A stretch of DNA of 58,346 nucleotides from an uncultured bacterium (GTDB lineage: Bacteria; Muiribacteriota; Ozemobacteria; Ozemobacterales; Ozemobacteraceae), in NCBI GenBank assembly GCA_964596185.1, contig CAZQUE010000020.1, forward strand, positions 1 through 58,346, written 5' to 3'. Of the stretch, positions 41,476 to 58,346 are shown one piece after another. The position numbers were made by a program, and so were the translations under genes. Position 1 is the first letter of the stretch; each line of letters opens with the position of its first letter. The notes under the pieces were generated by a model. The model did not search any database. It saw only the letters and a list, made by a program, of their open reading frames with translations, and was not told where the DNA came from.

Positions 41476-41743
41476 TTTTAAATCCTTTGACTGAATGTTG
41501 TGACTGAGCTGTTACTTCACGGAATAGGGCAGTGATGCAAAAACCAGTTTTATTTTGAAAACCGGATTCTATAACAAATAATCCCTTTTGCCAAGCATTT
41601 AATAAAGATTATGGGGCATATTTTTCTTTTTTTTTAACTCAAACGAAATTATTGAAATCGGTAGCAGGATACATTTTTTATTCATTTGCTTATTTTGTTG
41701 TGTTACTTTGTTTAAACATCGATATTAAAAATGAGAGTGCTTT

Positions 41744-44700
41744 ATGAATGAATATGAATTTGATCAGGAAACGGGGACTGAACCGAGTAAAGAAAATGAG
41801 CTAATTAAAGCCCATATTTTGCCAAAAATTAATTTTGCGATTCAGCAATCTGATGTGTCACTAATTCAACGCGTTTCTCTTGAGAATCCCAACTCTGAAA
41901 AGTTGGAAAATCTTGTGGTTACAATTGAATCCGAGCCGGAGTTTTTTCCAAGATGGCAAAAGCAGATTCCGGTATTGGAAGGGAAAAGCTCTGTCTGTAT
42001 AAATGAGCCCGATTTGAAGCCTGGTTCGGATTTTATGGTCAGGCTCGCAGAGAGATTAAAGGGCAAGATTAATATCAGTCTCGCCAATGGTTCCATGATT
42101 TCTCAAGTTTCAAATGAATTAGAAATTCTCGCCTATAACGAATGGCCTGGCGCCAGAATTGTTCCTGAATTACTCGCTGCATACATTTTACCCAATTCAT
42201 CGGTTGTCGAAAAAATTCTTATGAATAGCCTCGAAATCCTTAAAGGCTGGGGTGACAATTCAGGCCTGACGGGTTACCAGGAAAAAGACGGGAAAAAGGT
42301 TCTCAGAGTTGCTGCCGCCATCTTCAATTCTGTATGCATGCTTGGACTTAATTATGCTGTTGCCCCGGCAAGTTTTGAAGATCACGGTCAGAAAATTCGT
42401 TTTCCTGAAAAAATTGCTGAAAGTTTGTTAGGAAACTGTCTTGATTTGTCGCTGCTTTTAGCCGGTTGCCTTGAAAGCGCCGGCATCAATCCAATCATCA
42501 TTTTTACTGAAGGGCATGCTTTTGTCGGTTTCTGGCTAAAAGACGAAAGTTTCCCTTTAAGCTGGCTGGATGAAGTTTTACCATTGAAAAAACGAGTTGA
42601 GCTGGGTGAAATATGTGTTTTTGAAACGACCGTTTTAACAGGCCCCGGTGGCGATTTTGATACGGCCAGAAGCATTGCTGAAAACAAACTGTCAGAAAAT
42701 GATTTTGTCGGTTTGCTCGATGTAAAAAGAAGTCGCTCACACAACATCAGACCATTGCCGGTGACCTTTAAAGACGGCAAAGTTCAGTTTAAAGCCGATT
42801 TTGTCGTGTCAAAGGAAACTGAAGCCATTCAGAAATTTTTACCTCCTAAGGAAACTGACATAATTGTTGCCGAGAGCGGGGAAAAAGAAAAAAAGACCGA
42901 AAGCCGCATAGATCAATGGAAAAGGAAACTGCTTGATCTTACCTTGCGCAATCGATTACTAAATTTCAAAGAAACTAAAAAGAGTTTGCGAATTCTTACA
43001 CCCTCATTAGGTAAGCTTGAAGATATGCTTGCCGATGGTAAAGAGATTCAGATCAAGGCAATTCCGGACAACATTCTTGGTGGACGCAGCAGAAGTTTGT
43101 TTCTTGAGAATACCGGCAAAGATCTCATAAGCGAGTTTCTTAACAAAGAGTTTCAACAGCATAGAATTTATTCTGATCAAACAGAAAACGAATTGTCGAA
43201 AGGCCTTACGGAAATTTATCGAGAGGCTAGAAATACACTTCAGGAAGGTGGCGCAAATACCTTATTTTTGGGCGCTGGTTTTTTAAATTGGTATGAATCT
43301 GATACCAGCGATTTAAAGCGCTGTGCGCCAATCATTCTGATTCCGCTGGAAATACGAAGGAATTCCGTTCAGGAAGGTTTTCGTATTTGTCAAAGAGATG
43401 AAGAGGCGCAGATAAATGTAACCCTTCTCGAGCTTCTGAAAACCGACTTTGGCCTTGATATTAAGGGGCTTGATCCGCTGCCGTTAGATGATCACGGCAT
43501 TGACCTGGATAAGATTCTGAACACTTTCAGGCGGGCCATCCTTAACATTAGCCGTTGGGAGGTCACTGAAGATTCTTTTGTCGGTTTGTTTCATTTTCAG
43601 AAATTCCTGATGTGGAAAGATCTTGAAAGTAGAACTGATAAACTTCTTGATAACCCGGTTGTTAATCATCTGGTAAATGGTTCTGATCAAAGCTTTCCCG
43701 TTCAGGGCGATTTTCCGATTGCGCAGGAGCTTGATCAAAAATATTCATTAAAAGAGACATTTTGCCCGCTTAGCGCCGATAGCTCACAATTGGTTGCCGT
43801 TCATTCGGCTGCACTTGGCAGAAGCTTCGTGTTGCACGGGCCACCAGGCACAGGCAAGTCGCAAACCATTACCAATATCATTGCTCACAGTATCGCGACG
43901 GGAAAAACTGTTTTGTTTGTTTCTGAAAAGGCTGCCGCACTGAATGTGGTCTATAAAAGACTGTCGAATATCGGTCTGGCACCATTTTGTCTTGAACTTC
44001 ACTCCAATAAGAGCAGCAAGTCTGAGGTGCTGAAGCAGCTTAGCGATGGTTTGAATGCATCTTTTTCCATAAACGATCAAGAATGGGTAGATCAAGCCAG
44101 GCAGCTTGAACAACTTCGTTCAGAACTTAATCAGGTGGCTGACTTGCTTCACAGGGTTCACCCCCTGGGAATATCTCTTTTTCAGGGGATCGGTAAGGTT
44201 TCCTCTCTTAAGGATATGCCGTCAGTTGAATTGAACTGGAATAATTATCTGGAAATTTCAAAAGAACGATTGGAAAAAGTTCTCGATAATCTGCAGCGCC
44301 TGAAAATAACCGGTAAAGCATTTGCAAGTTCTGAAAACAATCCCTGGCAAGGCACCACTGTCATTGAATGGACAATGTCTCTGAACACTGAAATAGAAAA
44401 ACTTGCCCATTCCCTGGAGGAGCAATCTTCGCAGCTGGAAAGCCTTTTTCAACAATTGTCAAAAGATTTGCCCGGCTTGAAAAGGCCGGAGAATTTAGCC
44501 GAAATCAGTCATATTGGAAATTACTTTGAAAATCTTGTCAAGCTCAAAACTGATTCAACGAAGTTGCTAACCAATACCGATTGGGAACCGGCAAGAAAAA
44601 AGTTAGAAAATCTGATCGAGATTGGTCTGGAGTTTACCAGGCTTAGAGATTTAATTTTTGAAACTTTTTCACCCGAGTTCCTTGGTCAGGATCTTGCTTC

Positions 44701-47638
44701 TTTTCACCGAGACTGGAAGCTTGCTTGTGATAGTTGGTGGCCAAAATCCTGGTTTGCCAAAAGAACCATTTTCAATGAAATTTGCCAATTCCTGAACCAT
44801 GGAAAAAATATCGATAAAGAGCAACTCGACAGTCTTCTTTCGCAGGGTGTTGCTGCTAAAGAGAAACTGGCGGCAATCAAGGATAACGGCGATTTCGCTC
44901 TGGAGTGTATTGGTTCACTCTGGGAAAATGAGAATTCTGATTGGAGCTTAATAAGATCTGAACTAGAATTGATAGACAAGCAAAAATTTTGCTTGAAAAT
45001 TCTCAGTCGCAAGGACGCTGCCGAGTTTAAAAGAATAAATGAAATGGTTTTGCATCATTTCGCGACAGTTAAAGCAATGAAGGCAGTTGATTCAGAAACC
45101 TTGAATGTTTGCTTGAAATTCAAAGTTGCTTCTGCCAATCTGATTAGTAGCGCAGAAACAATTTTTGAAAAATTGAAATTCAGTGCACCAGATACTCATG
45201 AAGATTTTTTCGATTTCTTGAAGAATCTTGGTCGAACCTGGCGCAAAAACACAGATACTTTACGAAGCTGGAGCCTGTTCAATAAAACCATTGCCGAAGC
45301 CGAAGAAAACGGTTTGCCTGAAATAATCAAAGCCCTTGAAGAAAAGGAATTTGGTTTGGATGTTGCTGATAAGGTTTTTGAAAAAAGTTTTTTCAAAAGT
45401 TGGACGGCCGAGTTGATTGATCAACATTCTGAACTTAGAGACTTTTCGGGTGAAATTCATAACAGTAGAGTTGAAAAATTTCAGGAGATCGACGAAAAAT
45501 TTCTGGCTTCGACCCGCAAAGTTCTGGTCAGCAGATTGGCCGAAAAAATACCACAAAATGGGCAAAATGCCGTCGGAAACTCTGAGATGGGCATTCTCAA
45601 CCGCGAAATAAGAAAAAAACGCCAACACAAGCCCCTGAGAATTTTGTTCCAGGAGACCTCCAACCTTTTGCCCAGGCTCAAGCCGTGCTTTTTAATGAGT
45701 CCTCTTTCTGTAGCCCAATATCTTTCGACTGAACAGCCTCTGTTTGATCTGGTAATTTTCGATGAGGCCTCGCAGATGCCGGTATGGGATGCAATCGGTG
45801 CCATTGCCCGTGGGAAAAACCTTATTGTGGTGGGCGACCCCAGGCAATTGCCGCCCACGAGCTTCTTCAGCAAGTCAGAAGGCTCAGACTGGGAAGAGGC
45901 CGAATTTGTCGAAGACCTTGACAGTATTCTTGAAGATTGTCTGGCAGCCGGTTTGCCCAGTCTCTACCTGAACTGGCACTACCGAAGTCTCCACGAATCT
46001 CTAATCGCATTCAGCAACTTTAATTATTATGACAATCGGCTTCACACTTTCCCTTCAGCTTATTTTGAGGGCTTGGGGCTTAACCTTGTCCATGTTAAAG
46101 AAGGTATTTACGACAAAGGCAAATCCAGAACGAATAGAATCGAGGCTGAGCGCATCGTGGCCCATATTGTAAAGCGGTTGAAAGATCCGGCATTGAACGT
46201 TTTTTCAATCGGTGTCGTTACTTTCAATGCCAGTCAGCAAAGTCTCATTGAAGATCTGCTCGACGAAGAAAGAAGAAAGAGCCCGGAGATTGAGCCTTTT
46301 TTCAGCGAAAACAATTCGGAAAGCCTTTTTGTAAAAAATCTTGAAAATGTTCAGGGTGATGAACGTGATGTCATCATATTTTCAATTTGTTATGGCAGAG
46401 ATTTAAATGGCCGAATGAGTATGAATTTTGGTCCTGTAAACAAGGCCGGTGGTGAAAGACGACTTAACGTTGCCGTGACCAGAGCTCGTCGCGAGGTTCT
46501 GGTTTTTTCTTCAATCTTGCCTGATGAAATTGATCTTTCACGAACCAGAGCGATTGGTGTCAAACATCTTAAGTCTTACCTCGATTTTGCCAGAAGAGGC
46601 GAACAGGCAATTAAAGAAACCATCTCCGAATTTAATCAGGAGCTTTATGATTCGCCATTTGAAAAAGAAGTTGCAGAGGCATTGAGGCAAAAAGGTTTTG
46701 AAGTTCACACCCAAATTGGTTGCTCTGGTTATAAAATTGATCTTGCGGTTGTTCACCCGGAATACCCCGGCAGATACCTTCTCGGCATAGAATGTGACGG
46801 TGCGGCCTATCATTCCGCTAAATGTGCCCGCGAAAGAGACAAATTGCGTCAATCTGTTTTAGAAAGCCTGGGCTGGAAATTGCATCGGGTCTGGTCGACT
46901 GACTGGTGGCATGATTCTTCAAGAGAGGTTGAAAAAACGATAAAAAAGATCGAAGATGTTTCGAAAGAGCCACTTGCCGAGTTTGCGTCGATCAGTCCGG
47001 TAGCAGAAAAAGAGCGGGTTGTTGATTTTTCTGCACCATTCGAAAGTAGCTATTTGAATAACCAACCAACTAATCCCTTTGAAAAGTCATACACTGAATG
47101 GCGACCTTCTGAAAGTTTATTCAACTCCGATCAATTCTATTCCTCAGTTTATGACTACAGAATCAAAAAACTGATTTCAGAGATTGTCAATTTTGAAGGT
47201 CCGATAACCTTAACAAATCTTACCAGAAAGGTTTGTACGCAATTTCAAATCAGTCGGGCCACACAAAAGGCTCAGCATAGAATCGAGACTTTAGCCAGGG
47301 GCTGCGGCGGAATTTCTCAAGAAATATACAATAACCAGCTTTCATACTGGCCGGAAACCCTGACAATTTCAGATTACAGAGAGTTTCGAAAAAATACCGA
47401 CACGGCTTCAAGAAAAGCAGAAGATATACCGCATCAGGAAGTGGCTGTTGCGGCATTCTCTGTTCTAAGTGAAAATATAAGCATTGAAATTCCTGATCTG
47501 GTAAGGGCTACCGCAAATTGCTTCGGCTTTTCAAGAGTAGGCCAGAATGTTGAAGGCTCAATGCTTGTTGGCATTGAATACATGATCCAAAACTTTCCGG
47601 TGAATAAAGAAGGCGAAAGAGTTGTCTGCACCCAATAG
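41744..47638 (+). CDS. giant DNA-helicase-related protein: transglutaminase-like N-domain + DUF4011 + SF1 (Upf1-like AAA_11/AAA_12) helicase + DUF3320 + DUF559/REase_MTES_1575 endonuclease-like C-terminus
   Basis: 1964 aa. Cys/His/Asp transglutaminase-like core (GNCLDLS...EGHAFVGF). Walker A GPPGTGKSQT. Motif II/III region VVGDPRQLPP. Motif V/VI NVQGDERDVIIFS..NVAVTRAR. C-terminal GIECDGAAYHS...RD..R...L...GW...RVWSTDW. Confidence 0.75.
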   Translation: MNEYEFDQETGTEPSKENELIKAHILPKINFAIQQSDVSLIQRVSLENPNSEKLENLVVTIESEPEFFPRWQKQIPVLEGKSSVCINEPDLKPGSDFMVRLAERLKGKINISLANGSMISQVSNELEILAYNEWPGARIVPELLAAYILPNSSVVEKILMNSLEILKGWGDNSGLTGYQEKDGKKVLRVAAAIFNSVCMLGLNYAVAPASFEDHGQKIRFPEKIAESLLGNCLDLSLLLAGCLESAGINPIIIFTEGHAFVGFWLKDESFPLSWLDEVLPLKKRVELGEICVFETTVLTGPGGDFDTARSIAENKLSENDFVGLLDVKRSRSHNIRPLPVTFKDGKVQFKADFVVSKETEAIQKFLPPKETDIIVAESGEKEKKTESRIDQWKRKLLDLTLRNRLLNFKETKKSLRILTPSLGKLEDMLADGKEIQIKAIPDNILGGRSRSLFLENTGKDLISEFLNKEFQQHRIYSDQTENELSKGLTEIYREARNTLQEGGANTLFLGAGFLNWYESDTSDLKRCAPIILIPLEIRRNSVQEGFRICQRDEEAQINVTLLELLKTDFGLDIKGLDPLPLDDHGIDLDKILNTFRRAILNISRWEVTEDSFVGLFHFQKFLMWKDLESRTDKLLDNPVVNHLVNGSDQSFPVQGDFPIAQELDQKYSLKETFCPLSADSSQLVAVHSAALGRSFVLHGPPGTGKSQTITNIIAHSIATGKTVLFVSEKAAALNVVYKRLSNIGLAPFCLELHSNKSSKSEVLKQLSDGLNASFSINDQEWVDQARQLEQLRSELNQVADLLHRVHPLGISLFQGIGKVSSLKDMPSVELNWNNYLEISKERLEKVLDNLQRLKITGKAFASSENNPWQGTTVIEWTMSLNTEIEKLAHSLEEQSSQLESLFQQLSKDLPGLKRPENLAEISHIGNYFENLVKLKTDSTKLLTNTDWEPARKKLENLIEIGLEFTRLRDLIFETFSPEFLGQDLASFHRDWKLACDSWWPKSWFAKRTIFNEICQFLNHGKNIDKEQLDSLLSQGVAAKEKLAAIKDNGDFALECIGSLWENENSDWSLIRSELELIDKQKFCLKILSRKDAAEFKRINEMVLHHFATVKAMKAVDSETLNVCLKFKVASANLISSAETIFEKLKFSAPDTHEDFFDFLKNLGRTWRKNTDTLRSWSLFNKTIAEAEENGLPEIIKALEEKEFGLDVADKVFEKSFFKSWTAELIDQHSELRDFSGEIHNSRVEKFQEIDEKFLASTRKVLVSRLAEKIPQNGQNAVGNSEMGILNREIRKKRQHKPLRILFQETSNLLPRLKPCFLMSPLSVAQYLSTEQPLFDLVIFDEASQMPVWDAIGAIARGKNLIVVGDPRQLPPTSFFSKSEGSDWEEAEFVEDLDSILEDCLAAGLPSLYLNWHYRSLHESLIAFSNFNYYDNRLHTFPSAYFEGLGLNLVHVKEGIYDKGKSRTNRIEAERIVAHIVKRLKDPALNVFSIGVVTFNASQQSLIEDLLDEERRKSPEIEPFFSENNSESLFVKNLENVQGDERDVIIFSICYGRDLNGRMSMNFGPVNKAGGERRLNVAVTRARREVLVFSSILPDEIDLSRTRAIGVKHLKSYLDFARRGEQAIKETISEFNQELYDSPFEKEVAEALRQKGFEVHTQIGCSGYKIDLAVVHPEYPGRYLLGIECDGAAYHSAKCARERDKLRQSVLESLGWKLHRVWSTDWWHDSSREVEKTIKKIEDVSKEPLAEFASISPVAEKERVVDFSAPFESSYLNNQPTNPFEKSYTEWRPSESLFNSDQFYSSVYDYRIKKLISEIVNFEGPITLTNLTRKVCTQFQISRATQKAQHRIETLARGCGGISQEIYNNQLSYWPETLTISDYREFRKNTDTASRKAEDIPHQEVAVAAFSVLSENISIEIPDLVRATANCFGFSRVGQNVEGSMLVGIEYMIQNFPVNKEGERVVCTQ

Positions 47639-47764: not shown

Positions 47765-47809
47765 TGTAGTAACGACATTTTTGTAAATTTAAGTTGAGTG
47801 ATTCGGTTA

Positions 47810-48400
47810 ATGAAAATCAAGCTGAAAAAGATGGCAGATGTCCAGACCGGCTATTCGTTTCGGGGTCGAATCGAGCCCGATTCTGCCGGCGGCTTGGCGG
47901 TCATTCAAATGAAAGACCTGCAGGCTGATAACACCGTAGATTTTTCGAGCCTGACGATGGTCGATATGTCTGACGTAAAGTCTCATCACCTTGTTGAATC
48001 GGGTGACCTTGTCTTTAGATCGCGTGGTCTGGAAACTTCGGCCGCAATTGTTTTAGCAAGCCCAGGCCAGGCGATAGTTTCGGCCCCGCTATTGAGAATC
48101 AGGGTTAAGAAAACTGCAAAAATTTTGCCCGAATATCTGAACTGGTATTTGGCTCAGACCCTGGCGCAGGCCTATTTCAACAGTTACGCGATCGGTACTG
48201 CTCAGAAAATCATTAACAAAGAAGTCCTTGAAGAACTTGAAGTCTTCGTCCCGCCTTTGAAATTGCAGAAAAAAATCGTTGAACTGGCTGCTTTGGCTGA
48301 ATCAGAAAAAATGCTCGTCGAGGCAATAACCCGAAAAAGAAAACAATACGTTGCAGCGCTGCTGATGCGTGCTGTAAAAGGAGAAGCAGATGAACGCTAA
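47810..48400 (+). CDS. hsdS: type I restriction-modification specificity subunit, half-size (single TRD plus central conserved helix)
   Basis: Begins like an HsdS TRD (MADVQTGYSFRG). Ends with the conserved VFVPPLKLQKKIVE...LV block. ~197 aa. Stop overlaps the hsdM start. The GTG at 47798 or the ATG at 47831 are alternative starts. Confidence 0.6.
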   Translation: MKIKLKKMADVQTGYSFRGRIEPDSAGGLAVIQMKDLQADNTVDFSSLTMVDMSDVKSHHLVESGDLVFRSRGLETSAAIVLASPGQAIVSAPLLRIRVKKTAKILPEYLNWYLAQTLAQAYFNSYAIGTAQKIINKEVLEELEVFVPPLKLQKKIVELAALAESEKMLVEAITRKRKQYVAALLMRAVKGEADER

Positions 48401-49958
48401 AATTGATCAAAAAGACATAAACAACGCCGCCTGGGCCGCTTGCGACACTTTTCGCGGCGTGGTCGATCCGGCACAGTACAAAGACTACATTCTAGTCATG
48501 CTTTTTCTTAAGTATATTTCCGATGTCTGGCAGGACCACTATGAAACCTACCGTCAACAATACGGTGAAGATGATGTAAGAATCAGGCGCAAGCTTGAGC
48601 GCGAGCGTTTTGTGCTGCCGAATATCAAACTAACCGAAAAGAATGAAAAAACAGGTGAAGAAGCTGTTCTAGATGAGTTTCCGGCAACTTTTTATGCGCT
48701 TTACGAACGTCGTTCCGAGCCTAACATCGGCGAGCTGATCAATATCGTTCTCGATCATATTGAAGAAGCCAACAAAAGCAAGCTTGAGGGCGTTTTTAGA
48801 AATATTGACTTCAACAGCGAGGGCAATCTTGGCAAGACCAAAGACCGAAATCGTCGCCTCAAACAATTGCTTGAAGATTTCCACAAACCCCAGCTCGATA
48901 TGAAACCGAGTCTGGTTGCCGAAGACGTTATCGGCAATACCTATATCTACCTAATCGAAAGATTTGCTTCTGATTCGGGAAAAAAGGCTGGCGAATTCTT
49001 TACGCCGCTCAAGGTTACTGAGCTTGTCGCCATGCTTGCTGCGCCGAAAACGGGCGATCGAATCTGCGATCCGGCCTGCGGCTCGGGCGGGCTTTTGATT
49101 CAGGCTGCTCGGCAGGTCGGCGACCGGGATTTCGCTCTTTTCGGTCAGGAATCAAATGGCAGCACCTGGGCCCTTTGCCGCATGAACATGTTTCTTCACA
49201 GTTTTGACAGTGCCAGGGTCGAATGGTGCGACACTCTCAACAGTCCGTTGCTGGTTGAAAATGATCGATTGATGAAATTCAATTGCGTTGTTGCAAATCC
49301 GCCTTTTTCGCTTGATAAATGGGGGGCTGAAAACGCCGAAAGCGACCAGTATAATCGCTTCTGGCGTGGTGTGCCGCCGAAGAGTAAGGGTGACTGGGCT
49401 TTTATCAGTCACATGGTTGAGGTCGCCATTGAAAAAGCCGGTCGGGTGGCAGTGGTAGTGCCGCATGGGGTGCTGTTCAGAGGAGCCGCCGAAGGGCGAA
49501 TTCGTCGCAAAATGATTGAAGAAAACCTGCTCGATGCCGTCATCGGTTTGCCCGGCAATCTGTTTCCGACAACTAATATTCCCGTGGCTATCCTGGTATT
49601 CGATCGGGCCCGCGAAAAAGGCGGCGCACGAGAATCCTGCAAAGATGTTATTTTTATCGACGCCAGCTCTGAATTTACCCCCGGCAAAAATCAGAACACC
49701 CTGTCTGATGAGAACCTCGAAAAGATCATGACCACTTTCAAAGCTCGCAGGGAGGTCGAAAAATATGCCCATCTGGCAACGTTTGAAGAAATTAAAGAGA
49801 ATGACTTCAATCTTAATATTCCGCGTTATGTTGACACCTTTGAAGAAGAAGAAGAGATCGATATCGACGCGGTTCAGCTTGAAATAGAACAGCTCGAGAA
49901 AGAGCTGGCCGAAGTGCGTCTGCAGATGGCTGAAAAAATCGCTCAGATCGAGCGGTAG
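48390..49958 (+). CDS. hsdM: type I restriction-modification DNA methyltransferase subunit (N6-adenine)
   Basis: HsdM N-domain. AdoMet motif I DPACGSGG. Motif IV NPPFS. C-terminal acidic coiled coil. Confidence 0.85.
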   Translation: MNAKIDQKDINNAAWAACDTFRGVVDPAQYKDYILVMLFLKYISDVWQDHYETYRQQYGEDDVRIRRKLERERFVLPNIKLTEKNEKTGEEAVLDEFPATFYALYERRSEPNIGELINIVLDHIEEANKSKLEGVFRNIDFNSEGNLGKTKDRNRRLKQLLEDFHKPQLDMKPSLVAEDVIGNTYIYLIERFASDSGKKAGEFFTPLKVTELVAMLAAPKTGDRICDPACGSGGLLIQAARQVGDRDFALFGQESNGSTWALCRMNMFLHSFDSARVEWCDTLNSPLLVENDRLMKFNCVVANPPFSLDKWGAENAESDQYNRFWRGVPPKSKGDWAFISHMVEVAIEKAGRVAVVVPHGVLFRGAAEGRIRRKMIEENLLDAVIGLPGNLFPTTNIPVAILVFDRAREKGGARESCKDVIFIDASSEFTPGKNQNTLSDENLEKIMTTFKARREVEKYAHLATFEEIKENDFNLNIPRYVDTFEEEEEIDIDAVQLEIEQLEKELAEVRLQMAEKIAQIER

Positions 49959-49975
49959 ATTCCGGGAGGTATTAC

Positions 49976-50860
49976 GTGAACAGGAAACTAATAAACAATC
50001 ACTATCAGACATTTGAGGATATAAAACAAACCAACGGCCAGGGTGAAGAATTCTGGCTGGCAAGGCCACTGGCAAGGATTCTTGAATACTCTGATTTTCG
50101 AAATTTCCTTCTCGTTATCGAAAAAGCACAGCAGGCGTGCAAAAACAGTGGCCAGGCGGTTAAGAACCATTTCGTTGAAATCACCGAAATGGTCAATCTC
50201 GGTTCAGGAGCTGAACGCGAAGTTAAATCTTTTGCATTGTCGCGCTATGCCTGTTATCTGATCGTTCAGAACGGCGACCCGACCAAGCCGGTCATTGCTA
50301 ACGGGCAGACATATTTTGCCATTCAGACCCGCCGCCAGGAGCTCGCCGACAACGAAGCTTTTCAGCGCCTCAAAGAAGATGAAAAGCGGCTTTTTCTGCG
50401 TAATGAAATGCGCGAGCATAACAAGCAGCTGGTTGAAGCCGCTCAGCAGGCCGGCGTAAAAAGCAATCTCGATTTTGCCGTCTTTCAGAATCATGGTTAT
50501 AAAGGGCTTTACGGCGGCCTCGATGCCAAAGGCATTCATGCCAGAAAAGGGTTGAAAAAGAGTCAGAGCATTCTCGACAACATGGGCAGCACCGAACTTG
50601 CCGCCAATCTTTTCCGCGCCACGCAGACCGAAGAAAAACTGCGCCGTGAAAACGTTCAAGGCAAATTGCAGGCCAACCAGACCCACTATGCAGTCGGCAA
50701 AAAGGTTCGCCAGACCATCGAAGAATTAGGTGGCACCATGCCCGAAGACCTGCCAACCCCCGAAGAAGACCTGAAAAAACTCGAACGCCGCACCAGATCT
50801 TCAGATAAAAAGCTGACCAGTTCTGGAAATGCCCCAGAAACCCCGGAGAATGAAGAATGA
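49976..50860 (+). CDS. DinD-like (DNA-damage-inducible protein D family) protein inserted in the hsd operon
   Basis: GGGAGG RBS and GTG start. N-terminal TFEDIKQTNGQGEEFWLARPLARILEYSDFRNF...KAQQACKNSG matches my recollection of the E. coli DinD N-terminus. This family is commonly found between hsdM and hsdS. Confidence 0.5.
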   Translation: MNRKLINNHYQTFEDIKQTNGQGEEFWLARPLARILEYSDFRNFLLVIEKAQQACKNSGQAVKNHFVEITEMVNLGSGAEREVKSFALSRYACYLIVQNGDPTKPVIANGQTYFAIQTRRQELADNEAFQRLKEDEKRLFLRNEMREHNKQLVEAAQQAGVKSNLDFAVFQNHGYKGLYGGLDAKGIHARKGLKKSQSILDNMGSTELAANLFRATQTEEKLRRENVQGKLQANQTHYAVGKKVRQTIEELGGTMPEDLPTPEEDLKKLERRTRSSDKKLTSSGNAPETPENEE

Positions 50861-52020
50861 AAGAAAGTCTTCAGAATTTAAAAACAGTGCTAGGAAAAAT
50901 TGCAGAAATTTCTTCTGGAGGGACACCAGCAAGGGGTGTTCCTGAGTATTGGAATGGCAACATTCCATGGGTTAAAACTACTCAAATTCAAAATTGCCAA
51001 ATTTTTCTGGAGAGCGTTGATGAGTGGATTACTCAGAACGGTTTGAAGAATTCATCGGCAAAAATAATACCAGCAGGCACAATTCTTATGGCTATGTATG
51101 GCCAGGGAAAAACCAGAGGCCAAGTAGGTATACTGGCTTTTGATGCTGCTATAAACCAAGCTTGTGCCGCAATAGAGTTAAAGGGCAATGTTGATCGAGA
51201 TTTTATTTTTCAATCATTATTAGCAAATTATAAAAAAATACGAGCTATAAGCAATGTTGGTGGGCAAGAAAATTTGAGTGCAGGCTTGATAAAAGAGATT
51301 CCGATCTATCTTCCAAAACTTACAGAACAAAAAGCCATTGCCGATCTCCTTTCAACCTGGGACAAAGCCATCGAAAAAACCGAACGCCTGATCCAGGCAA
51401 AAGAAAAGCGTTTTAAGTGGTTGTTACGAGAGTTGATTTTCGAAGCTCAGAAGGTCCAGAAAAACACAGAATGGAAAAAGTTGAAATTGGGGGAAATTTG
51501 TAAGTTATATCAACCCCAAACTATCTCCAAAGAGGATATGTGCCAAACAGGGCCCTTCAAAGTGTTTGGAGCCAATGGCGTAATTGGTTTTTATGAAAAG
51601 TATAATCATGAAGAACCAGAAATTGCTATTACCTGCCGAGGAGCAACATGCGGAACTATAAATATAACAGAACCTAAAAGTTGGATTACAGGAAACGCGA
51701 TGATTGCCCAACCAAATGAAAAGAAAATGCTGAAGAATTTTCTTTATTACTCACTTTTGGTTGCCAATATGAAATCAGTAATCTCTGGTGCTGCACAACC
51801 GCAGATAACGAGGCAAGATTTAGCCCCTTTAAATGTCTTGGTTCCTCCTTTGGAGAGCCAAAAACAAATTGCTGAAACATTGTCTTTTTCTCAAAATGAA
51901 ATCGATCTGCTGAAACAGCTGGCAGAAAAATACAAAACACAAAAGCGCGGGCTAATGCAAAAGCTACTAACCGGCCAATGGCGGCTTAAGTCCGAAATTA
52001 TTAATAGATTCAAGGAGTAG
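50857..52020 (+). CDS. hsdS: type I restriction-modification specificity subunit (full length, two TRDs), low-GC
   Basis: Two TRDs. Each is followed by a conserved block (IPIYLPKLTEQKAIADLL and NVLVPPLESQKQIAETL). ATGA overlap with the dinD-like stop. ~38% GC versus ~50% for hsdM. Confidence 0.8.
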   Translation: MKESLQNLKTVLGKIAEISSGGTPARGVPEYWNGNIPWVKTTQIQNCQIFLESVDEWITQNGLKNSSAKIIPAGTILMAMYGQGKTRGQVGILAFDAAINQACAAIELKGNVDRDFIFQSLLANYKKIRAISNVGGQENLSAGLIKEIPIYLPKLTEQKAIADLLSTWDKAIEKTERLIQAKEKRFKWLLRELIFEAQKVQKNTEWKKLKLGEICKLYQPQTISKEDMCQTGPFKVFGANGVIGFYEKYNHEEPEIAITCRGATCGTINITEPKSWITGNAMIAQPNEKKMLKNFLYYSLLVANMKSVISGAAQPQITRQDLAPLNVLVPPLESQKQIAETLSFSQNEIDLLKQLAEKYKTQKRGLMQKLLTGQWRLKSEIINRFKE

Positions 52021-52117
52021 TTGTTTGGCAAAAGATGCTCTGATTATGGCCAGTTTTTTCATCAATGGTAATAGATTATAGTTTAATCCTTAAGATAACG
52101 AAATTGAAGAGGGCAAA

Positions 52118-55100
52118 ATGAAAATAAAAAATGGATCATCTGATACAAAACTTCTTGCAAGCGGTGGTGGAGATGGAACAGCAATAGGGGTTAAGTTTCA
52201 GTCTGAGATTGGTGCAGTATTTCTTACCAATCTTTTGGCAGAAGTTTCTTTGGATAGAAGATTATTTTTGAAAGAAACTAAAGCGCTGATTCTACGCTTT
52301 GAAACTGAAGCTCCAATAGATGATATTCTTGTAGAGACCGATGAAGGTGGCTTTATTGCAATTCAAGCTAAGGCAAATTTGAACTCTTCAAAAAATATTG
52401 ACAGTGAGTTTGGAAAAACTATTAAGCAAATTGCCCGACATTACTTTGCTTGCAAACAAGACACTAATGTATATGGTTGGGATCGAACAAATGATTTAAA
52501 TAAAGACAGATTTCTTATTGCTGTTGGTGAAAAAACCTCGGGGATGATTCGGCATCATTTGCGCGAGGGTTTAAATGCCAGGAGGCAAACTCTAATTGGC
52601 GAAAAAGCGAAATTTACCAAAAAACAAAAAGAAGCTTTAAGTAATTTTGATTGCTGTTTAAAAAAAGCGTGGGAGTCAATTACTTCAGATCCTTTCAATG
52701 ATCAAGTTAAAAAGGAAATTTCTTGCCTTACTGTAATAATTTCTTATGACATTGAGGGTAGTGAGAGAGCAGCCTTAATTCAGCTACTGAAACCGTTAAT
52801 TTTAGATAGAACAAAGCCGGAGATTGTTCTGGAACTTTTGGCTGGTTTTTCCATTGATATGATGGCAGCAAGGTCTAGTATAAACAATCAGTTTTTAAGG
52901 AGATTTCTTTCTCAAAAAGGCATTTCTGTAGATGCTTTAGAAAAATTTAGAGAAGACATTAAATCTCTAAAAAAATATTCAGATAAAGTGCAGCATATTC
53001 TTTCAAGATATGAATCAATCGAAAATACCGAGAATGAAATGGTAAAAATTTCAAGGACTTGTCAGAAGAATTTGATTGAATCGATTCTTAACGGTTCATT
53101 GCTCATTATTGGTGAGCCTGGTTCTGGCAAGAGTGCGGCAATAAATGTAGCTAGTCGAGAGCTTAAAGAGCTGGGGCACGATGTTGTTGAGCTTGCTGTT
53201 GATCAACTTCCAGTAAATTCTTTAGAAGGGTTGGCATATGAATTAGCTATAGACAATTCATTTGTTGAAGTGCTTAACAATTGGGAAGGTGAGAAACCAG
53301 GTTTTGTGATGATAGATGCTCTTGATGCTACTAGGGGTGGATCTAATGAAGCTGTTTTTCGAACCTTGATTTCAAATGTGATTTTATCTAATTCTCGCTG
53401 GCGTATTGTTGCGTCAATACGAGTTTTTGACTTAAAACTTGGACAGCAATTTCAAAGCTTATTCAAAGGGGAACCTCCAGATAAATTATTGCAAGATCCT
53501 TTATTCCCAAGAGTTCGCCATGTAAAAATTCCTATTTGGCAAAAGGAAGAGATGCAGGAATTACTTGCAAAGTTTCCTGCCCTTAAGCTGGCCTTAGAAA
53601 ATGTACCCGAAAGGGTTCGAGAGCTGGCAACAGTGCCTTTTAATACTAAATTATTTGCCGATCTGCTTTCAAGCGGAATAGAGTCAGATGAGTTTGTTAA
53701 GATTTATACTCAAGCGGAGTTATTGCAACTTTATTGGAATTGTAAAATTTCTTCCTTGGGCGAAGCTGGGAATGTACAGCTTCGAAAAATTGTTTCAGTT
53801 ATGGTGAATGAAAGAACCTTGAGGGTTTCAAAGCAAAAAGTGATTGATCATGATCCATCAATTTTACAAGCCTTGTTCCAAAAAGGTGTACTAGCTTCAA
53901 TTGGAAATGATAGATATTTAAGTTTCAGACACCACATTCTTTTTGATTTTGTTGCGAGCAAGGTTTATCTGGATTTAGATGATATTAAATCTGGAAAAGC
54001 TATTTTTTACAAAAAAGATGCTTTAGGCTTAATGTTAGGGCCAGCTTTTTCATTCCTTTTGGAAGAACTTTGGTTGTTAGATGATTCTCGCGATGATTTT
54101 TGGAAAGCGGCGTTTTTTATTCTTGGGCAAGATCTTTATGATCCTGTAATAAAAAGTTTGATTTCTAGATTGGCTTCCGAGTTATCACAAAACTATTCAG
54201 ATTTAGAATTCTTGGCAAAATCTATTAAAGAGGGGAATGAAAAATCTAAGGAAGTATTAAAGCAGATAATTGGTTCCCTTATAGTGAAGCTCGAAGATCA
54301 ACAAGCAAATAGCGTGTCGCATTGGACAAAATTTTTAGCCAACATTGTAGAAGCGACCGATTTTGTTTTTTGGGAAATGAAAAATCTGTCATATCTATTA
54401 ATTGATAGGGTAAATTGCCAAAAAGATCTTGAAAATATTGGAATTGCAGCTCGGGCCCTTTTAAATTTTTCCTTTTCAAAAAATCAAATGATTCCAGAGT
54501 TAATAGCATCTTCAATAGAACTCGTAGCCAAAACTTATTCTACAGACGAAAGGGCATCTAGAAGACTTTTAGAAAAAATTTTTGCAGAAAGTAGATTTCA
54601 AGAATTTGGACCGATTGAAGTGCCTGCTTTAACTGAAAATATAAGTTCTGTGGCTAAAACGGATATCGATTTTGTAGTTGAAATTTTTAGAAACGTTTTT
54701 CGATTAGAAATACAAAATGATAAACCAACTCCTATGGGGAGCAGCCAAATTTTGCCCCTGGTTTCAAATACTCGACAGGATTTTGAGATGGCTCGTTATT
54801 CTCTTGAGGTTTTTTTTCCATCTTTTTTAGAATCTTACCCGGAAGAAGCGACTAAAGCATTAATTCACTCAATTGAGGGCTTTTTTTTGCGGAAGCATAG
54901 TGAGTTAAATGGTGGAAAGACGGTCGGGATTAAAACACCAAGTGGAAATGTTACATTAAAAGAAGATATGAGCTGCTATTGGGCACCAGATCCATATGAT
55001 AATTATAATATGGATGCTATGACTCTATTAAAAGAGTTTACAGATAAATTGGAAACATTGCCGGCAAATAAGTGTATGCAAATTGTACAGATGGTAATTT

Positions 55101-57010
55101 CTTCAAATAAGTTAGCAATAGTTTGGGCAAGATTATTAATGGCCGCTGTAAAAAGGACTGAGATTTTGGGTGACCTTTTATTTCCTATTGCTTGCTCAGA
55201 ACCATTTTTGGTTTCGCCTGATACAAGAAAAGATTCAATTGATCTTTTGGCAAAGCTTTATTCAAAAAAAACTGTAGAAGAAAAAGAGGCTTTTGAAAAT
55301 AAGGTATTAAAGTTTGATTTTTCAAGATTTGAATCCCCAGATCAGGCCAAAGAAAGGTTTTTACTGACCATATTTAATGCAATTGGCACGAAATTACTTG
55401 TGACAGACAGCGCAAAATCATTTCTCGACAAAACTGAAGTAAGAGAAATTCAGAATGAAAGGCCTGTAAGAGTTGGTTCTGGTTGGGTTGAAAAAGAAGA
55501 AAAATATTGGTGGTTGAGGGAGTGTGGAGTAGAGGTAGATTCTTCCGAAAATAAAAATTTGATCGCCGCTGTTGAAATGGCTCAACAAAAAATTGAAATC
55601 TCCGACGGCCAAGGAGAATTTGAAATTGGGTTTAAGGAAAAAATTAAAAGGCTGGAAGGGTTATTTTTTGAAATTGAAAAAAGTTTTGAAAAAAAATTAA
55701 ATGAAAAGCTCATTTTGTTCGCCGAAGGGGTATTAGGGGAAGAAATTGAAAAACTGTCTGCCAGCAAGGAATTATTTGATTTTTCACACCGGGTTTCTGC
55801 TTTAAAAGTTACAGATTGGGTCGTCCGGCTTTCTGAATCAAAATCCCCCCAAACAGAAGAGCATACAGAGGAAAAATTTGAGACCAACCCCTCATGGAGT
55901 TCTCCAGCAACTAGGATTAGTGTTGCTAAATCAGCTTTTAACCTTTGCTTGATTGAAAACGAAATTTTCCAAAAATTAAAACCAGTAATTGAAAATACCT
56001 TAGTGGATTCACATCCAGCAGTAAGAATGAGCGCTGCAATTTCATTAGGGATTTTGGGGAGACTGGATTTAAAATGGATATGGGAATTAGGCGAAAAATT
56101 TATTTACCGAGAAAAAAATCAGGCAGTATTAAAATTTTTTGTAAACTCCTTCTTAAATCAGTTCCTACACCATGATCCCGAAAAAGTTGAGCTTCTAACT
56201 TTAAAATTGCTAGATAAAATAACTAAATCTGATGACAAGCTTAATCGTGGAACCATGGAAGCACTTGGGAGATTGATTACATTGCTTTGGGCCTCGCATG
56301 GCCGAGAAAAGTCGAAGGAAGTGCTTCTTGATTGGAATAAAAACTTTTTTGATTTTTTTGATGGCCTCTCGTATTCAATTTTCACCTTAAGAGATGGTTT
56401 GGTCCTAGGATATGAAGATGAAAATTCAGAAGATGCACTTGTTAGGGCTCGGTGCTTTGAAATTCAACTTCTATTAACTAAGAATTGTATTGGCATACTA
56501 AAAAAGCTATTACAGGAATCAAAGCAAGTATCTAATATTCAAAATTGCTATAAATTCATTGATGGGTCTTTGATGCAGGTATTTTTTGCTTCAGGAGCCT
56601 TTAATAGTAATAAAGACCAAAAGGATGGGCTTTCATCAATCTCTGCAAAAAAGAAGTTTCTTGATGATGTAGAAGTTTTTTTAAAAGATGTGGGGGCTGT
56701 TGGTTCTCCTCGCACAATCTACCACCTTCTTCAACTTTTAGAATTCTTGTTACCAGCAAACCCTTCAAAAGTGTTTGAAATAATGAGTGCTTCCATTTTG
56801 TTAGGTGGGCGCGAGCGTGGTTTTCAATTCGAGTCTTTAGGTGCAAACTTAACCGTTAAAATAGTTGGCATATTTCTAGCAGACCATCGAGAGATTTTTG
56901 AAGAAAAAGGCAATAGAGAAAAACTTGTTGAATGTTTAGAGCTATTCCAATCGGCGGGCTGGCCATCATCTCGGCGATTGCTTTACCGCCTTCCGGAGTT
57001 GTTGCAATGA
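52118..57010 (+). CDS. giant NTPase: Mrr-like PD-(D/E)xK N-domain + P-loop (STAND/NACHT-like) NTPase + long HEAT/ARM-like helical repeat region (candidate antiviral STAND-like protein)
   Basis: 1630 aa. GAGGG RBS. N-terminus has G..FQ....a.LL ... D-ILVETDEGGFIAIQAK, i.e. the Mrr_cat-like order G.FE / D / (E/Q)xK. Walker A LLIIGEPGSGKSAA (about aa 330) and Walker B GFVMIDALDATRG. The C-terminal ~1000 aa is all-helical with HEAT-like signatures (DSHPAVRMSAAISLGILG). Very low GC. Confidence 0.55.
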   Translation: MKIKNGSSDTKLLASGGGDGTAIGVKFQSEIGAVFLTNLLAEVSLDRRLFLKETKALILRFETEAPIDDILVETDEGGFIAIQAKANLNSSKNIDSEFGKTIKQIARHYFACKQDTNVYGWDRTNDLNKDRFLIAVGEKTSGMIRHHLREGLNARRQTLIGEKAKFTKKQKEALSNFDCCLKKAWESITSDPFNDQVKKEISCLTVIISYDIEGSERAALIQLLKPLILDRTKPEIVLELLAGFSIDMMAARSSINNQFLRRFLSQKGISVDALEKFREDIKSLKKYSDKVQHILSRYESIENTENEMVKISRTCQKNLIESILNGSLLIIGEPGSGKSAAINVASRELKELGHDVVELAVDQLPVNSLEGLAYELAIDNSFVEVLNNWEGEKPGFVMIDALDATRGGSNEAVFRTLISNVILSNSRWRIVASIRVFDLKLGQQFQSLFKGEPPDKLLQDPLFPRVRHVKIPIWQKEEMQELLAKFPALKLALENVPERVRELATVPFNTKLFADLLSSGIESDEFVKIYTQAELLQLYWNCKISSLGEAGNVQLRKIVSVMVNERTLRVSKQKVIDHDPSILQALFQKGVLASIGNDRYLSFRHHILFDFVASKVYLDLDDIKSGKAIFYKKDALGLMLGPAFSFLLEELWLLDDSRDDFWKAAFFILGQDLYDPVIKSLISRLASELSQNYSDLEFLAKSIKEGNEKSKEVLKQIIGSLIVKLEDQQANSVSHWTKFLANIVEATDFVFWEMKNLSYLLIDRVNCQKDLENIGIAARALLNFSFSKNQMIPELIASSIELVAKTYSTDERASRRLLEKIFAESRFQEFGPIEVPALTENISSVAKTDIDFVVEIFRNVFRLEIQNDKPTPMGSSQILPLVSNTRQDFEMARYSLEVFFPSFLESYPEEATKALIHSIEGFFLRKHSELNGGKTVGIKTPSGNVTLKEDMSCYWAPDPYDNYNMDAMTLLKEFTDKLETLPANKCMQIVQMVISSNKLAIVWARLLMAAVKRTEILGDLLFPIACSEPFLVSPDTRKDSIDLLAKLYSKKTVEEKEAFENKVLKFDFSRFESPDQAKERFLLTIFNAIGTKLLVTDSAKSFLDKTEVREIQNERPVRVGSGWVEKEEKYWWLRECGVEVDSSENKNLIAAVEMAQQKIEISDGQGEFEIGFKEKIKRLEGLFFEIEKSFEKKLNEKLILFAEGVLGEEIEKLSASKELFDFSHRVSALKVTDWVVRLSESKSPQTEEHTEEKFETNPSWSSPATRISVAKSAFNLCLIENEIFQKLKPVIENTLVDSHPAVRMSAAISLGILGRLDLKWIWELGEKFIYREKNQAVLKFFVNSFLNQFLHHDPEKVELLTLKLLDKITKSDDKLNRGTMEALGRLITLLWASHGREKSKEVLLDWNKNFFDFFDGLSYSIFTLRDGLVLGYEDENSEDALVRARCFEIQLLLTKNCIGILKKLLQESKQVSNIQNCYKFIDGSLMQVFFASGAFNSNKDQKDGLSSISAKKKFLDDVEVFLKDVGAVGSPRTIYHLLQLLEFLLPANPSKVFEIMSASILLGGRERGFQFESLGANLTVKIVGIFLADHREIFEEKGNREKLVECLELFQSAGWPSSRRLLYRLPELLQ

Positions 57011-58346
57011 GCGATTCCGGAGAGAAATATCGATTTAAAGAAAAATTACATGAGACAATTTCTAGATTTGCTACCAATGAAAAAAAACGAAATAGGACTT
57101 TTTCTGGGGCTGAGGCGAAAGAGCCTTTAGAACACACTACTAGAATTTATTTGTTGGATGAAATTGTAAAAGCTCTAGGATGGAACCTTTCTCTGGGTGG
57201 TGACATTCTTGAAGAGGCTCGAATTAAAGATGATACAACTAACTATGTTGATTATCTTGGCATTGATCCTGATAAAGGCATTCCCTTAATGATTATTGAG
57301 GCTAAAGCATGGAATCGGCCATTTATTCGCGGAAAGACCGGGAATTCTCCGTCTAGCCCAGATGAGCTTTTGTTTAAGGCTATAGAGCATATCAAGGCAG
57401 AAGGTAAAGAAAATGAATCTCCTGTGATTAAAGACTGGCATGATTGGTTGGTTCAAGTTAGAGGGTATGTTTGCGATTTGTACAATAACTTTAATCATTC
57501 CGTCGCTAAATTAGTTTTAACATCAGGAAAATGGCTGGTAATTTTTCGAAAACCATTAGAAACATTTGGTGGTAGAGCTCCTTTGGAAAAGAGTGATTGG
57601 GTAATTCTTCAATTAGATGATTTTGTAAGAAGATCAGATGAAATTTTTGCTGAAATAGCGAGAAAAAACCTTGTTGAATCTATTCCTGCTAGGATTTGGG
57701 AAAGTCAAGTCAGAGCTTTTTTCTGTATTGAGGATTTGCAGGGAGTTTATAATACAGTTTTAGTAAAATACGAGAAATCTGGTCATTGTGATGTTGAAAT
57801 TTTTCCAAGAATACTTTTATATCCGGCAGTTACATTGGTTAGAAGAGATCGCAAATCTACTACTGTTATAAATAAAGAATATCTAATCCTTCCATTCTCA
57901 GATAACCCTCGGGAGCTGTTAAGTCATTTTGATGAATTTGCCAAAATCTCACAGAGATTGTTGGATAAGATTTCAGATGAATTGAGAAGAGAGTTAAAGC
58001 CTTCAGGGTTAGCTTCTTATCCTTTTGACAATTTCGTTCAAATGTGCGACTTTGGCGTTGGCTCTGGAAGCGTAATTACAGGTGAATTAACACATTTTCT
58101 TTTGAAAGCCCCCCCCCTAAAATGCAAATACCATTGTTGGAAAAACTGCAGAAATGATGGCGTTGAAATAAATCAAAACTCAATTGAAAGACGGTCAATA
58201 GAACCAAGATCCTATTTTAAGAGTGGTGAAATCTATCATTGTGCAAATTTAAATATGCATAACAAAAGAAAAAGTCGCTGCAAAATTGGCCCAATAGATG
58301 AATATCTTTGTTGTAAAGCCTGTGTGCTTTTCCAGATTTGTTGGCC
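57007..58346 (+). CDS. HsdR-N-terminal-like PD-(D/E)xK nuclease-domain protein with Cys-rich (zinc-finger-like) region; 3'-partial (runs off window)
   Basis: ATGA-coupled to the upstream giant gene. Absent from the ORF track because no stop occurs in the window. Motif VDYLGIDPDKGIPLMIIEAKAW matches the nuclease core of type I R-subunit N-domains / HSDR_N_2. No helicase Walker A in the 446 visible aa. C-terminal Cys cluster C.YHCWKNC...YHCANLNMHNKRKSRCK..CCKAC. Confidence 0.5.
   Translation, partial: MSDSGEKYRFKEKLHETISRFATNEKKRNRTFSGAEAKEPLEHTTRIYLLDEIVKALGWNLSLGGDILEEARIKDDTTNYVDYLGIDPDKGIPLMIIEAKAWNRPFIRGKTGNSPSSPDELLFKAIEHIKAEGKENESPVIKDWHDWLVQVRGYVCDLYNNFNHSVAKLVLTSGKWLVIFRKPLETFGGRAPLEKSDWVILQLDDFVRRSDEIFAEIARKNLVESIPARIWESQVRAFFCIEDLQGVYNTVLVKYEKSGHCDVEIFPRILLYPAVTLVRRDRKSTTVINKEYLILPFSDNPRELLSHFDEFAKISQRLLDKISDELRRELKPSGLASYPFDNFVQMCDFGVGSGSVITGELTHFLLKAPPLKCKYHCWKNCRNDGVEINQNSIERRSIEPRSYFKSGEIYHCANLNMHNKRKSRCKIGPIDEYLCCKACVLFQICW

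Follow-up and report, generated by a model that had tools for sequence, protein, structure and literature searches.

What stands in the place where a type I restriction–modification (R-M) locus would ordinarily carry hsdR? The question is raised by a contig from an uncultured Ozemobacteraceae bacterium (CAZQUE010000020.1; 58,346 nucleotides (nt), analyzed over its whole length and referred to below as the window), in which hsdS is followed by two coupled genes on the + strand. The first, encoding protein A, opens with an ATG and spans 52118–57010 including its stop codon (1630 amino acids (aa)); the second, encoding protein B, runs from 57007 to 58346, where the end of the contig cuts the gene after residue 446 of 460. 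Both were called as open reading frames (ORFs) and matched by PADLOC models, and they are joined by an ATGA start/stop overlap at 57007–57010 (+), the junction reading TTGCAATGAGCG. A first-pass annotation had taken the pair for an undescribed defense module in the hsdR position, consisting of a giant protein with an Mrr-like nuclease, a STAND-type nucleoside triphosphatase (NTPase), and a HEAT-like tail, coupled to a second PD-(D/E)xK protein. Our analysis places the pair, by sequence, in the catalogued candidate system PDC-M54, and we consider it probable that A is an antiviral STAND (Avs)-type receptor nuclease accompanied by B as an accessory.

Family identity of the gene pair

Using models from PADLOC-DB v2.0.0, we obtained matches to both components of PDC-M54: protein A matched PDLC04702 (PDC-M54A; E=0, 1760 bits) over model positions 8–1621 of 1621, and protein B matched PDLC04706 (PDC-M54B; E=9e-137) over model positions 1–463 of 475. 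The two genes adjoin on the same strand with a 4-nt overlap, which is the PDC-M54 arrangement. PDC-M54 is one of 145 phage defense candidates obtained by "guilt-by-embedding," for which the embedding hosts were Hma, BREX, DISARM, and type I R-M loci (Payne, Hughes, Fineran & Jackson 2024, bioRxiv 10.1101/2024.01.29.577857); in the supplementary table of that study, cassette CAS_00172 carries the entry 'Assign as candidate PDC-M54'. The first-pass annotation had, in essence, drawn this inference a second time. The genes, their order, their orientation, and the type I R-M setting are the same in PDC-M54 and in the window, with no difference in kind. These matches identify the window pair as a divergent member of the catalogued candidate, the closest other sequences found being at most 45% identical to A and 47–48% identical to B.

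Both families are large. The A family comprises 368 homologue clusters of ~1610–1650 aa, and an exhaustive HMMER search gave 549 B representatives at 50% identity; another homologue search, seeded with the B alignment, added only five sequences. Because the hidden Markov model matches are full length and the homologues many, A and B are not chance ORFs. When complete E. coli genomes were searched at the near-DNA level with the region, and when a distant search was made with an Atlantibacter homologue, no match came back. A further relationship was found in the NTPase of A, residues 311–518 of which are 51% identical (E=5e-70) to the NTPase of seed 418 in a STAND census (WP_140197987.1 from Salmonella enterica, NTPase residues 302–518; Lee et al. 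2026, Supplementary Table S1). Through this seed, the A family is one already recognized as a defense-related STAND family. The claim that the pair belongs to no named system therefore falls, both to the PADLOC matches and to the census seed. The ORFs and motifs on which the first-pass annotation had relied are real: A contains GVKFQ, PIDDILVET...IQAK, GEPGSGKS, and MIDALDATRGG, and B contains the quoted DYLGIDPDKGIPLMIIEAKAW and a Cys-rich C terminus.

Domains of proteins A and B

We modeled residues 1–720 of A with AlphaFold2 (AF2; pLDDT 90.4, pTM 0.80) and scanned alignments of its N- and C-terminal parts separately against Pfam. According to the model and to conservation, residues 18–136 (52169–52525, +) form a predicted PD-(D/E)xK core of alpha-beta-beta-beta-alpha-beta topology, its helices at 18–41 and 97–114 and its strands at 55–61, 70–74, 79–85, and 131–136 all having pLDDT >90. 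The nuclease signature consists of GGx5G(F/Y)Q, E62, D68, D69, and Q83-x-K85, with D68/D69 just ahead of beta2 and Q83-x-K85 in beta3. In alignments of 44–58 homologues, G18, G24, F27, R60, E62, E64, D68, D69, and Q83 were invariant, and K85 did not vary among the 44 sequences of the narrowest alignment and was conserved to at least 90% in the larger alignments; across phyla, E62 and D69 were invariant while D68 and K85 were at least 90% conserved.

The earlier label of "Mrr-like" did not survive comparison with genuine Mrr proteins. Mrr_cat (PF04471) gave no Pfam match even at E≤1 in 38 A N-terminal segments, hhalign of the A N terminus against a genuine Mrr_cat protein returned a probability of 0.1%, and the two have only a generic D...QxK motif in common. 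Weak leads pointed to Cap4/HamA-type nucleases: Cap4_nuclease (PF14130/DUF4297) matched weakly in 3 of the 38 members (best E=0.083), the GGxAxxxGxxFQ motif matched AbpA/HamA (8zue) weakly (E=0.14), and the vDDxv...QxK core aligned to the Cap4 domain of SeAvs7 at just 6 bits. As modeled, the N terminus of A is a PD-(D/E)xK nuclease fold that appears more Cap4-like than Mrr-like, the Cap4 leads being weak. An all-helical linker follows at residues 137–310 (52526–53047, +; AF2 helices at 142–299), and it matched no family.

The linker leads into a predicted STAND NTPase at residues 311–620 (53048–53977, +), comprising a nucleotide-binding domain, a helical domain, and a winged helix, which we delimited from Foldseek matches and motifs. 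Its Walker A motif, GEPGSGKS, lies at G332–S339 (nt 53111–53134, +), and its Walker B motif, hhhhDALD, lies at residues 396–403 (D400/D403) and is followed by R406-G407. Both motifs were invariant in the alignments of 44–58 homologues, as were S433-I-R435, FRHH603–606, F609, and D610. When the model of residues 1–720 was compared with the PDB by Foldseek, Avs4 (8dgf; E=8e-13, 693 columns) ranked first and Avs3 (8dgc; E=6e-9) second, with NLRC4, NLRP3, NLRP9, and EfAvs5 in the next ranks and a probability of 1.00 for the top matches. The STAND assignment is supported by this modeled fold, though no Pfam STAND model passes threshold (among STAND/NACHT models, nSTAND3 scored 16 bits and NPHP3_N 18 bits, both sub-threshold). 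We rejected the identification of A as a housekeeping AAA+ protein.

At the level of sequence, A had a sole significant relative among solved structures, SeAvs7 (9N00; E=1.4e-5). The similarity falls in three collinear stretches corresponding to the NTPase, the winged helix (FRHH aligned to FGHQ), and a segment containing DPHPAVR, and H605 of A aligns with H545 of SeAvs7, a functionally noted residue.

The rest of A, residues 637–1630 (54026–57007, +), consists of C-terminal helical repeats, as judged from the partial AF2 model and profile searches, and is presumed to be the sensor. Helical repeats begin at residue 637 and the modeled portion, 637–719, is helical. A profile of the last 990 residues matched SeAvs7 at 5e-5, through one stretch of ~85 aa only (stretch E-value 0.001), and it matched the HEAT proteins PP2A-A, INTS4, PDS5, and Raptor at E 0.002–0.4, these matches resting on one DPhPAVR motif region at residues ~1230–1320. 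One homologue (P0002) has a precomputed Pfam HEAT match, and no PADLOC Dsr1 or Avs model matched the tail in any of 35 members. The earlier description of a HEAT-like helical tail is thus borne out for the helices from residue 637 and for the HEAT-type region at ~1230–1320, the remainder beyond residue 720 lying outside the model; the overall order of nuclease, STAND-type NTPase, and helical-repeat tail holds in the AF2, Foldseek, and profile results.

Protein B could be completed from a 2.4-kb Logan contig (L006), which shares the final 1657 nt of the window at 100% identity. The full-length protein (P0121) stops 43 nt past the window end and is 460 aa long. Residues 42–180 (57130–57546, +) form a restriction-endonuclease-like PD-(D/E)xK domain, in which E42, R46, W59, E70, D82, Y83, G85, E98, K100, W144, Y154, and W176 are invariant among 134 diverse members, E98 and K100 constituting the E98-x-K100 motif. 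A Cys/His cluster occupies residues 373–446 (58123–58346, +) and extends to C456 beyond the window; its metal-ligand candidates, C373, H376, H411, C412, C425, C435, C436, C439, C445, and C456, are 95–99% conserved in the same 134 members. Within this cluster C436-x2-C439-x5-C445 is invariant and lies 270 residues from the nuclease core. In iron-staple nucleases of the Cas4/AddB type, a CX2CX5C motif and a distal Cys flank the nuclease core and bind a [4Fe-4S] cluster. We take the spacing in B to recall this Cas4/AddB/Dna2 Fe-S motif, as a lead only.

The relatives of the B nuclease domain were DrdV (9.7), BpuSI (7.1), an HsdR fragment (3h1t; 7.0), and EcoR124I HsdR (5.6), with PspGI, BbvCI, and NgoMIV lower, and Pfam HSDR_N matched below threshold in 11 of 22 B members. 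The domain thus resembles those of the HsdR N terminus and of type IIG/IIL enzymes (EcoR124I HsdR, DrdV, BpuSI). Unlike these enzymes, B has no superfamily 2 (SF2) motor, methyltransferase, or target-recognition domain, and it has a unique beta-rich middle domain and Cys/His C terminus, neither of which gave a structural or sequence match. No helicase family matched B, Foldseek of the B model against the PDB returned nothing below E=0.1, and a B profile matched no PDB sequence. Family members are 440–560 aa long, and the 150 of 549 representatives listed were all stand-alone proteins of <550 aa, none fused. The description of the second gene as an HsdR-N-like PD-(D/E)xK core with a Cys/His cluster and no helicase holds up. 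Its identification as a full-length HsdR does not, as B is complete at 460 aa with no motor, and a truncated HsdR is ruled out by that length, by the lack of an SF2 helicase, and by the 440–560-aa range of the family.

We also observed a run of nine C residues at 58109–58117 (+), within the B coding sequence, which encodes A-P-P just before the Cys/His cluster. The run is the same in the independent Logan contig, and the NCBI contig stops ~230 nt later; slippage or phase variation may occur there, or the run may be a point at which assemblies tend to break.

Distribution, partner loss, and proposed mechanism

A scan of GTDB species representatives yielded 72 loci with A. The hosts belong to the Alpha-, Beta-, Gamma-, and Deltaproteobacteria, Bacteroidota, Acidobacteriota, Chloroflexota, Planctomycetota, and Verrucomicrobiota, and A was also present in a Heliobacteriaceae metagenome-assembled genome (MAG) and in a Methanotrichaceae archaeon. 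The archaeal homologue (L042, 9956–14944, in a Methanotrichaceae MAG) is full length, is 27% identical, and has no B, and it implies cross-domain transfer of the PDC-M54 family. We also found the family on plasmids (13, of which 7 are conjugative), and among phage genomes a protein search gave no A-family match. Defense genes neighboring A include PDC-S37, PDC-S13, and Fic, and its other neighborhoods comprise toxin–antitoxin pairs, PLD-helicase islands, Mrr, integrase-flanked islands, IS66 and type VI secretion system (T6SS) regions, and plasmids. In two Binatia MAGs, a 730-aa HmaB/PglX-like DNA methyltransferase gene (L009, 14933–17125; L038, 14918–17110) lies ~100 nt after an A gene that has no B, so that an Hma/BREX-type system may there enclose or adjoin A.

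To score B, we used the 56 loci in which A is full length and is followed by 1.5 kb of sequence or more. B lies immediately downstream of A in 38 of the 56, and a 4-nt [AGT]TGA overlap is present in ~31 of these 38, so that the coupling seen in the window is conserved across species. In the remaining 18 loci, B is absent over 10 kb, and no conserved gene takes its place. On a quick neighbor-joining tree of 35 taxa, B appeared to be ancestral and to have been lost at least 8 times, and the putative catalytic residues of A were retained in loci with and without B. Because B has been lost repeatedly while the catalytic residues of A stayed intact, A looks self-sufficient and B accessory.

We consider it reasonably probable that PDC-M54 is a mobile antiphage cassette in which A is an Avs-type STAND pattern-recognition nuclease and B an accessory. 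The reading of A is supported by the structural matches to Avs4, Avs3, and NLR proteins, the sequence match to SeAvs7, the 51% identity of its NTPase to the census seed, the conserved nuclease and Walker residues, and the defense genes among its neighbors. By analogy with SeAvs7, SeAvs3, and EcAvs4, A would work as follows, its defense activity, trigger, oligomerization, and DNA target, like the role of B, being inferred. Resting A would be an autoinhibited, ADP-bound monomer, and its HEAT-like C-terminal solenoid of ~1000 residues would bind a conserved phage protein, relieving the autoinhibition. Nucleotide exchange would then allow A to oligomerize through its NTPase, gathering the N-terminal Cap4-like PD-(D/E)xK domains into an active, nonspecific DNase whose cleavage of DNA would lead to abortive infection. 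Translational coupling would cause B to be made in a fixed ratio with A, and B, a second PD-(D/E)xK nuclease whose Cys/His domain would bind metal, would augment or modulate the response. An accessory function for B, as co-effector or modulator and not as essential core, seems most likely, and we are much less sure of it than of the reading of A.

Several points weigh against this proposal. A passes no Pfam threshold for a nuclease or a STAND domain and was matched by none of the PADLOC Avs and Dsr1 models. The sensor role of the tail would hold by analogy, the structural model stopping at residue 720, and the neighbor-joining tree behind the count of B losses is crude. In the searchable literature, we found no mention of PDC-M54 in paper texts and no experimental test of it. 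Finally, the invariant catalytic and metal-binding residues of B and its tight coupling to A argue that, where present, B is more than a dispensable add-on.

A variant that we regard as possible, though with clearly lower probability, is an Avs-type receptor with a dedicated second nuclease acting in trans. B would in that case carry an Fe-S or multi-zinc cluster and would be licensed or recruited by the STAND oligomer, or would sense the state of the DNA. Were this true, the two-enzyme output would be new among characterized Avs proteins, and if the family is also distinct from Avs1–24, the trigger would be new too.

Somewhat less likely again is an obligate two-component system in which the effector nuclease proper is B, acting under license from A, and the A N terminus serves mainly as a scaffold or docking site. 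Such a system would fit the conservation of the 4-nt overlap in ~31 of 38 loci and of E42, D82, E98, K100, and the 8-Cys/2-His cluster of B in 134 members, and it would fit the occurrence of B, which is always stand-alone (~460–540 aa) and which in the fetched loci was found only next to A. Yet one in three species-level loci has A alone, no other partner standing in for B within 10 kb, the E62, D68, D69, and K85 of A are conserved irrespective of B, and in the Avs8 precedent (described below) the partner is dispensable.

We think it improbable that PDC-M54 has no antiphage role and instead serves mobile elements as an addiction or DNA-processing module under STAND control, active in plasmid or inter-element competition. 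Its presence on the 13 plasmids (7 conjugative) and beside integrases, insertion sequence elements, and T6SS cargo would be expected of such a module, and so would the outcome of our literature search, which turned up no experimental test of PDC-M54 in defense. Against it stand the architecture and fold of A, which match proven antiviral STANDs, the recurrent position of the family within or adjacent to R-M and other defense genes, its selection as a defense-associated STAND seed, and its absence from the phage genomes searched. If the Avs-type cassette is confirmed as a defense system, the bacterial pattern-recognition receptors would gain a further widespread STAND family, and the occurrence of A with and without its metal-cluster nuclease partner would offer a natural comparison for what accessory genes add to Avs proteins.

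Genomic setting and comparison with known Avs systems

The host type I locus of the window (48390–52020, +) contains hsdM (48390–49958, +) and a two-domain hsdS (50857–52020, +), both with Pfam and PADLOC matches, and between them a Bro-N gene that corresponds to PADLOC PDC-S13 (49976–50860, +; E=2e-124). The end of the PDC-S13 gene and the beginning of hsdS share 4 nt. With PDC-S13, the R-M operon holds two embedded candidates. Upstream of hsdM, a half-size hsdS (47798–48400, +; 200 aa with one target-recognition domain) overlaps the hsdM start by 11 nt and may be what remains of an hsdS, or else a spare specificity half.

Searching by phmmer with the HsdM and HsdS of the window as seeds, we found type I genes beside A in 3 of the 72 loci (L022, L033, and L075). 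In L033, from a member of the Blastocatellia, the order is hsdM, Schlafen/AlbA_2, A, B, hsdS, a CBS-domain gene, an unidentified ORF, and hsdR, and this hsdR is conventional, with HSDR_N, SWI2_SNF2, ResIII, and T1R_D3 domains; in L022, A lies downstream of a complete hsdR-hsdM-hsdS set and has no B. The cassette thus travels as a passenger within R-M loci or beside them and does not substitute for hsdR, and the functional meaning that the first-pass annotation had read into the "hsdR position" is lost with the rarity of type I genes beside A and with the intact hsdR of L033. The idea that A and B replace HsdR in a hybrid restriction system, with HsdM and HsdS recognizing the sequence and A–B cleaving, can draw on the gap of just 97 nt between hsdS and A, in which there is no + strand promoter or terminator consensus, on the lack of any hsdR in the 58,346-nt window, and on the likeness of the B nuclease to the HsdR N-terminal domain, but we reject it as very improbable because type I linkage is rare, L033 and L022 have their own hsdR, B has no motor domain, the gene next after B is another embedded defense candidate (Fic), so that the island simply continues, and the contig ends before any hsdR could show.

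The Fic/DOC gene (PADLOC PDC-S04/SoFic-like; E=4e-36) lies at 1779–2378 of the Logan contig L006, which prolongs the window by ~720 nt. It starts 78 nt after the B stop, ~120 nt past the window end. Exact-pattern scans of metagenome contigs for sequence beyond the window gave no match, L006 being the only extension. The defense island continues past the contig end, and an hsdR belonging to the window locus, if any, must lie beyond the Fic gene.

At the other end of the island, a 1964-aa helicase-nuclease (41744–47638, +), matched by PADLOC PDC-S37 (E=0) and Hhe (E=2e-187), has DUF4011, a superfamily 1 helicase (AAA_11/AAA_12), an MTES_1575 endonuclease, and DUF3320 as its domains. Its gene is the first of the AT-rich island, directly after an EF-G-like gene (39394–41475, − strand), beside which the GC content falls sharply, from 0.52 to ~0.39–0.43, over the boundary at 41000–42000. 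GC content is 0.34–0.38 over A and B and is higher both in hsdM (0.50) and in the flanking chromosome (0.52), in agreement with the AT richness noted at first pass, and the defense context noted there is likewise real, given the PADLOC matches and the neighboring defense genes. GC skew is strongly positive (0.13–0.22) and sustained across 52000–58346, compared with 0.02–0.13 in the rest of the island. No tRNA was found anywhere in the window and no integrase among the window ORFs scanned. The last ~17 kb of the window is a stacked defense island comprising PDC-S37, a type I R-M locus with embedded PDC-S13 and PDC-M54, and Fic. The outcome for the window is the annotation of this island and not a novel hsdR replacement, and its remaining value lies in a catalogued family with a conserved metal-cluster nuclease partner that calls for explanation.

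Outside the island, the window encodes a 465-aa protein (15275–16672, −) with matches to Band_7/SPFH, the Major Vault Protein (MVP) repeat (Vault_3), and the MVP shoulder, a combination of Band_7/SPFH and vault domains that is unusual for a bacterium.

Among the known systems, SeAvs7 (PDB 9N00/9N01/9YIX) consists of a Cap4 nuclease, a STAND domain, and TPRs, senses the major capsid protein, tetramerizes, and cleaves DNA (Lee et al. 2026, Nature), which is the mode of action proposed above for A. SeAvs7 and A have in common the layout of a Cap4-type PD-(D/E)xK nuclease, a STAND NTPase, and a long helical sensor, which in A is presumed. Their similarity is marginal, A is ~100 aa longer, and PADLOC gives no Dsr1/Avs7-type sensor signal for A; SeAvs7 is moreover a single gene that uses EF-Tu, whereas PDC-M54 often has two genes. 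Avs4 (EcAvs4, 8DGF) and Avs3 (SeAvs3, 8DGC) likewise have the nuclease-STAND-repeat architecture of A. They are 13–14% identical to it with no sequence-level match, their TM-scores are low because the domains are arranged differently, and, unlike A–B, both are described as single-protein systems.

A parallel in gene organization is offered by Avs8/PD-lambda-4, a two-gene operon that, like PDC-M54, pairs a nuclease-STAND protein with an uncharacterized partner. In that system, the nuclease-STAND protein Avs8A suffices for defense and the partner Avs8B is dispensable (bioRxiv 10.1101/2025.07.02.662641), and this dispensability parallels the loss of B. Avs8 is a different family from PDC-M54, the window pair giving no PADLOC PD-lambda-4 match, and whereas Avs8B is not reported as a nuclease, B is conserved, belongs to the PD-(D/E)xK proteins, and bears a metal cluster.

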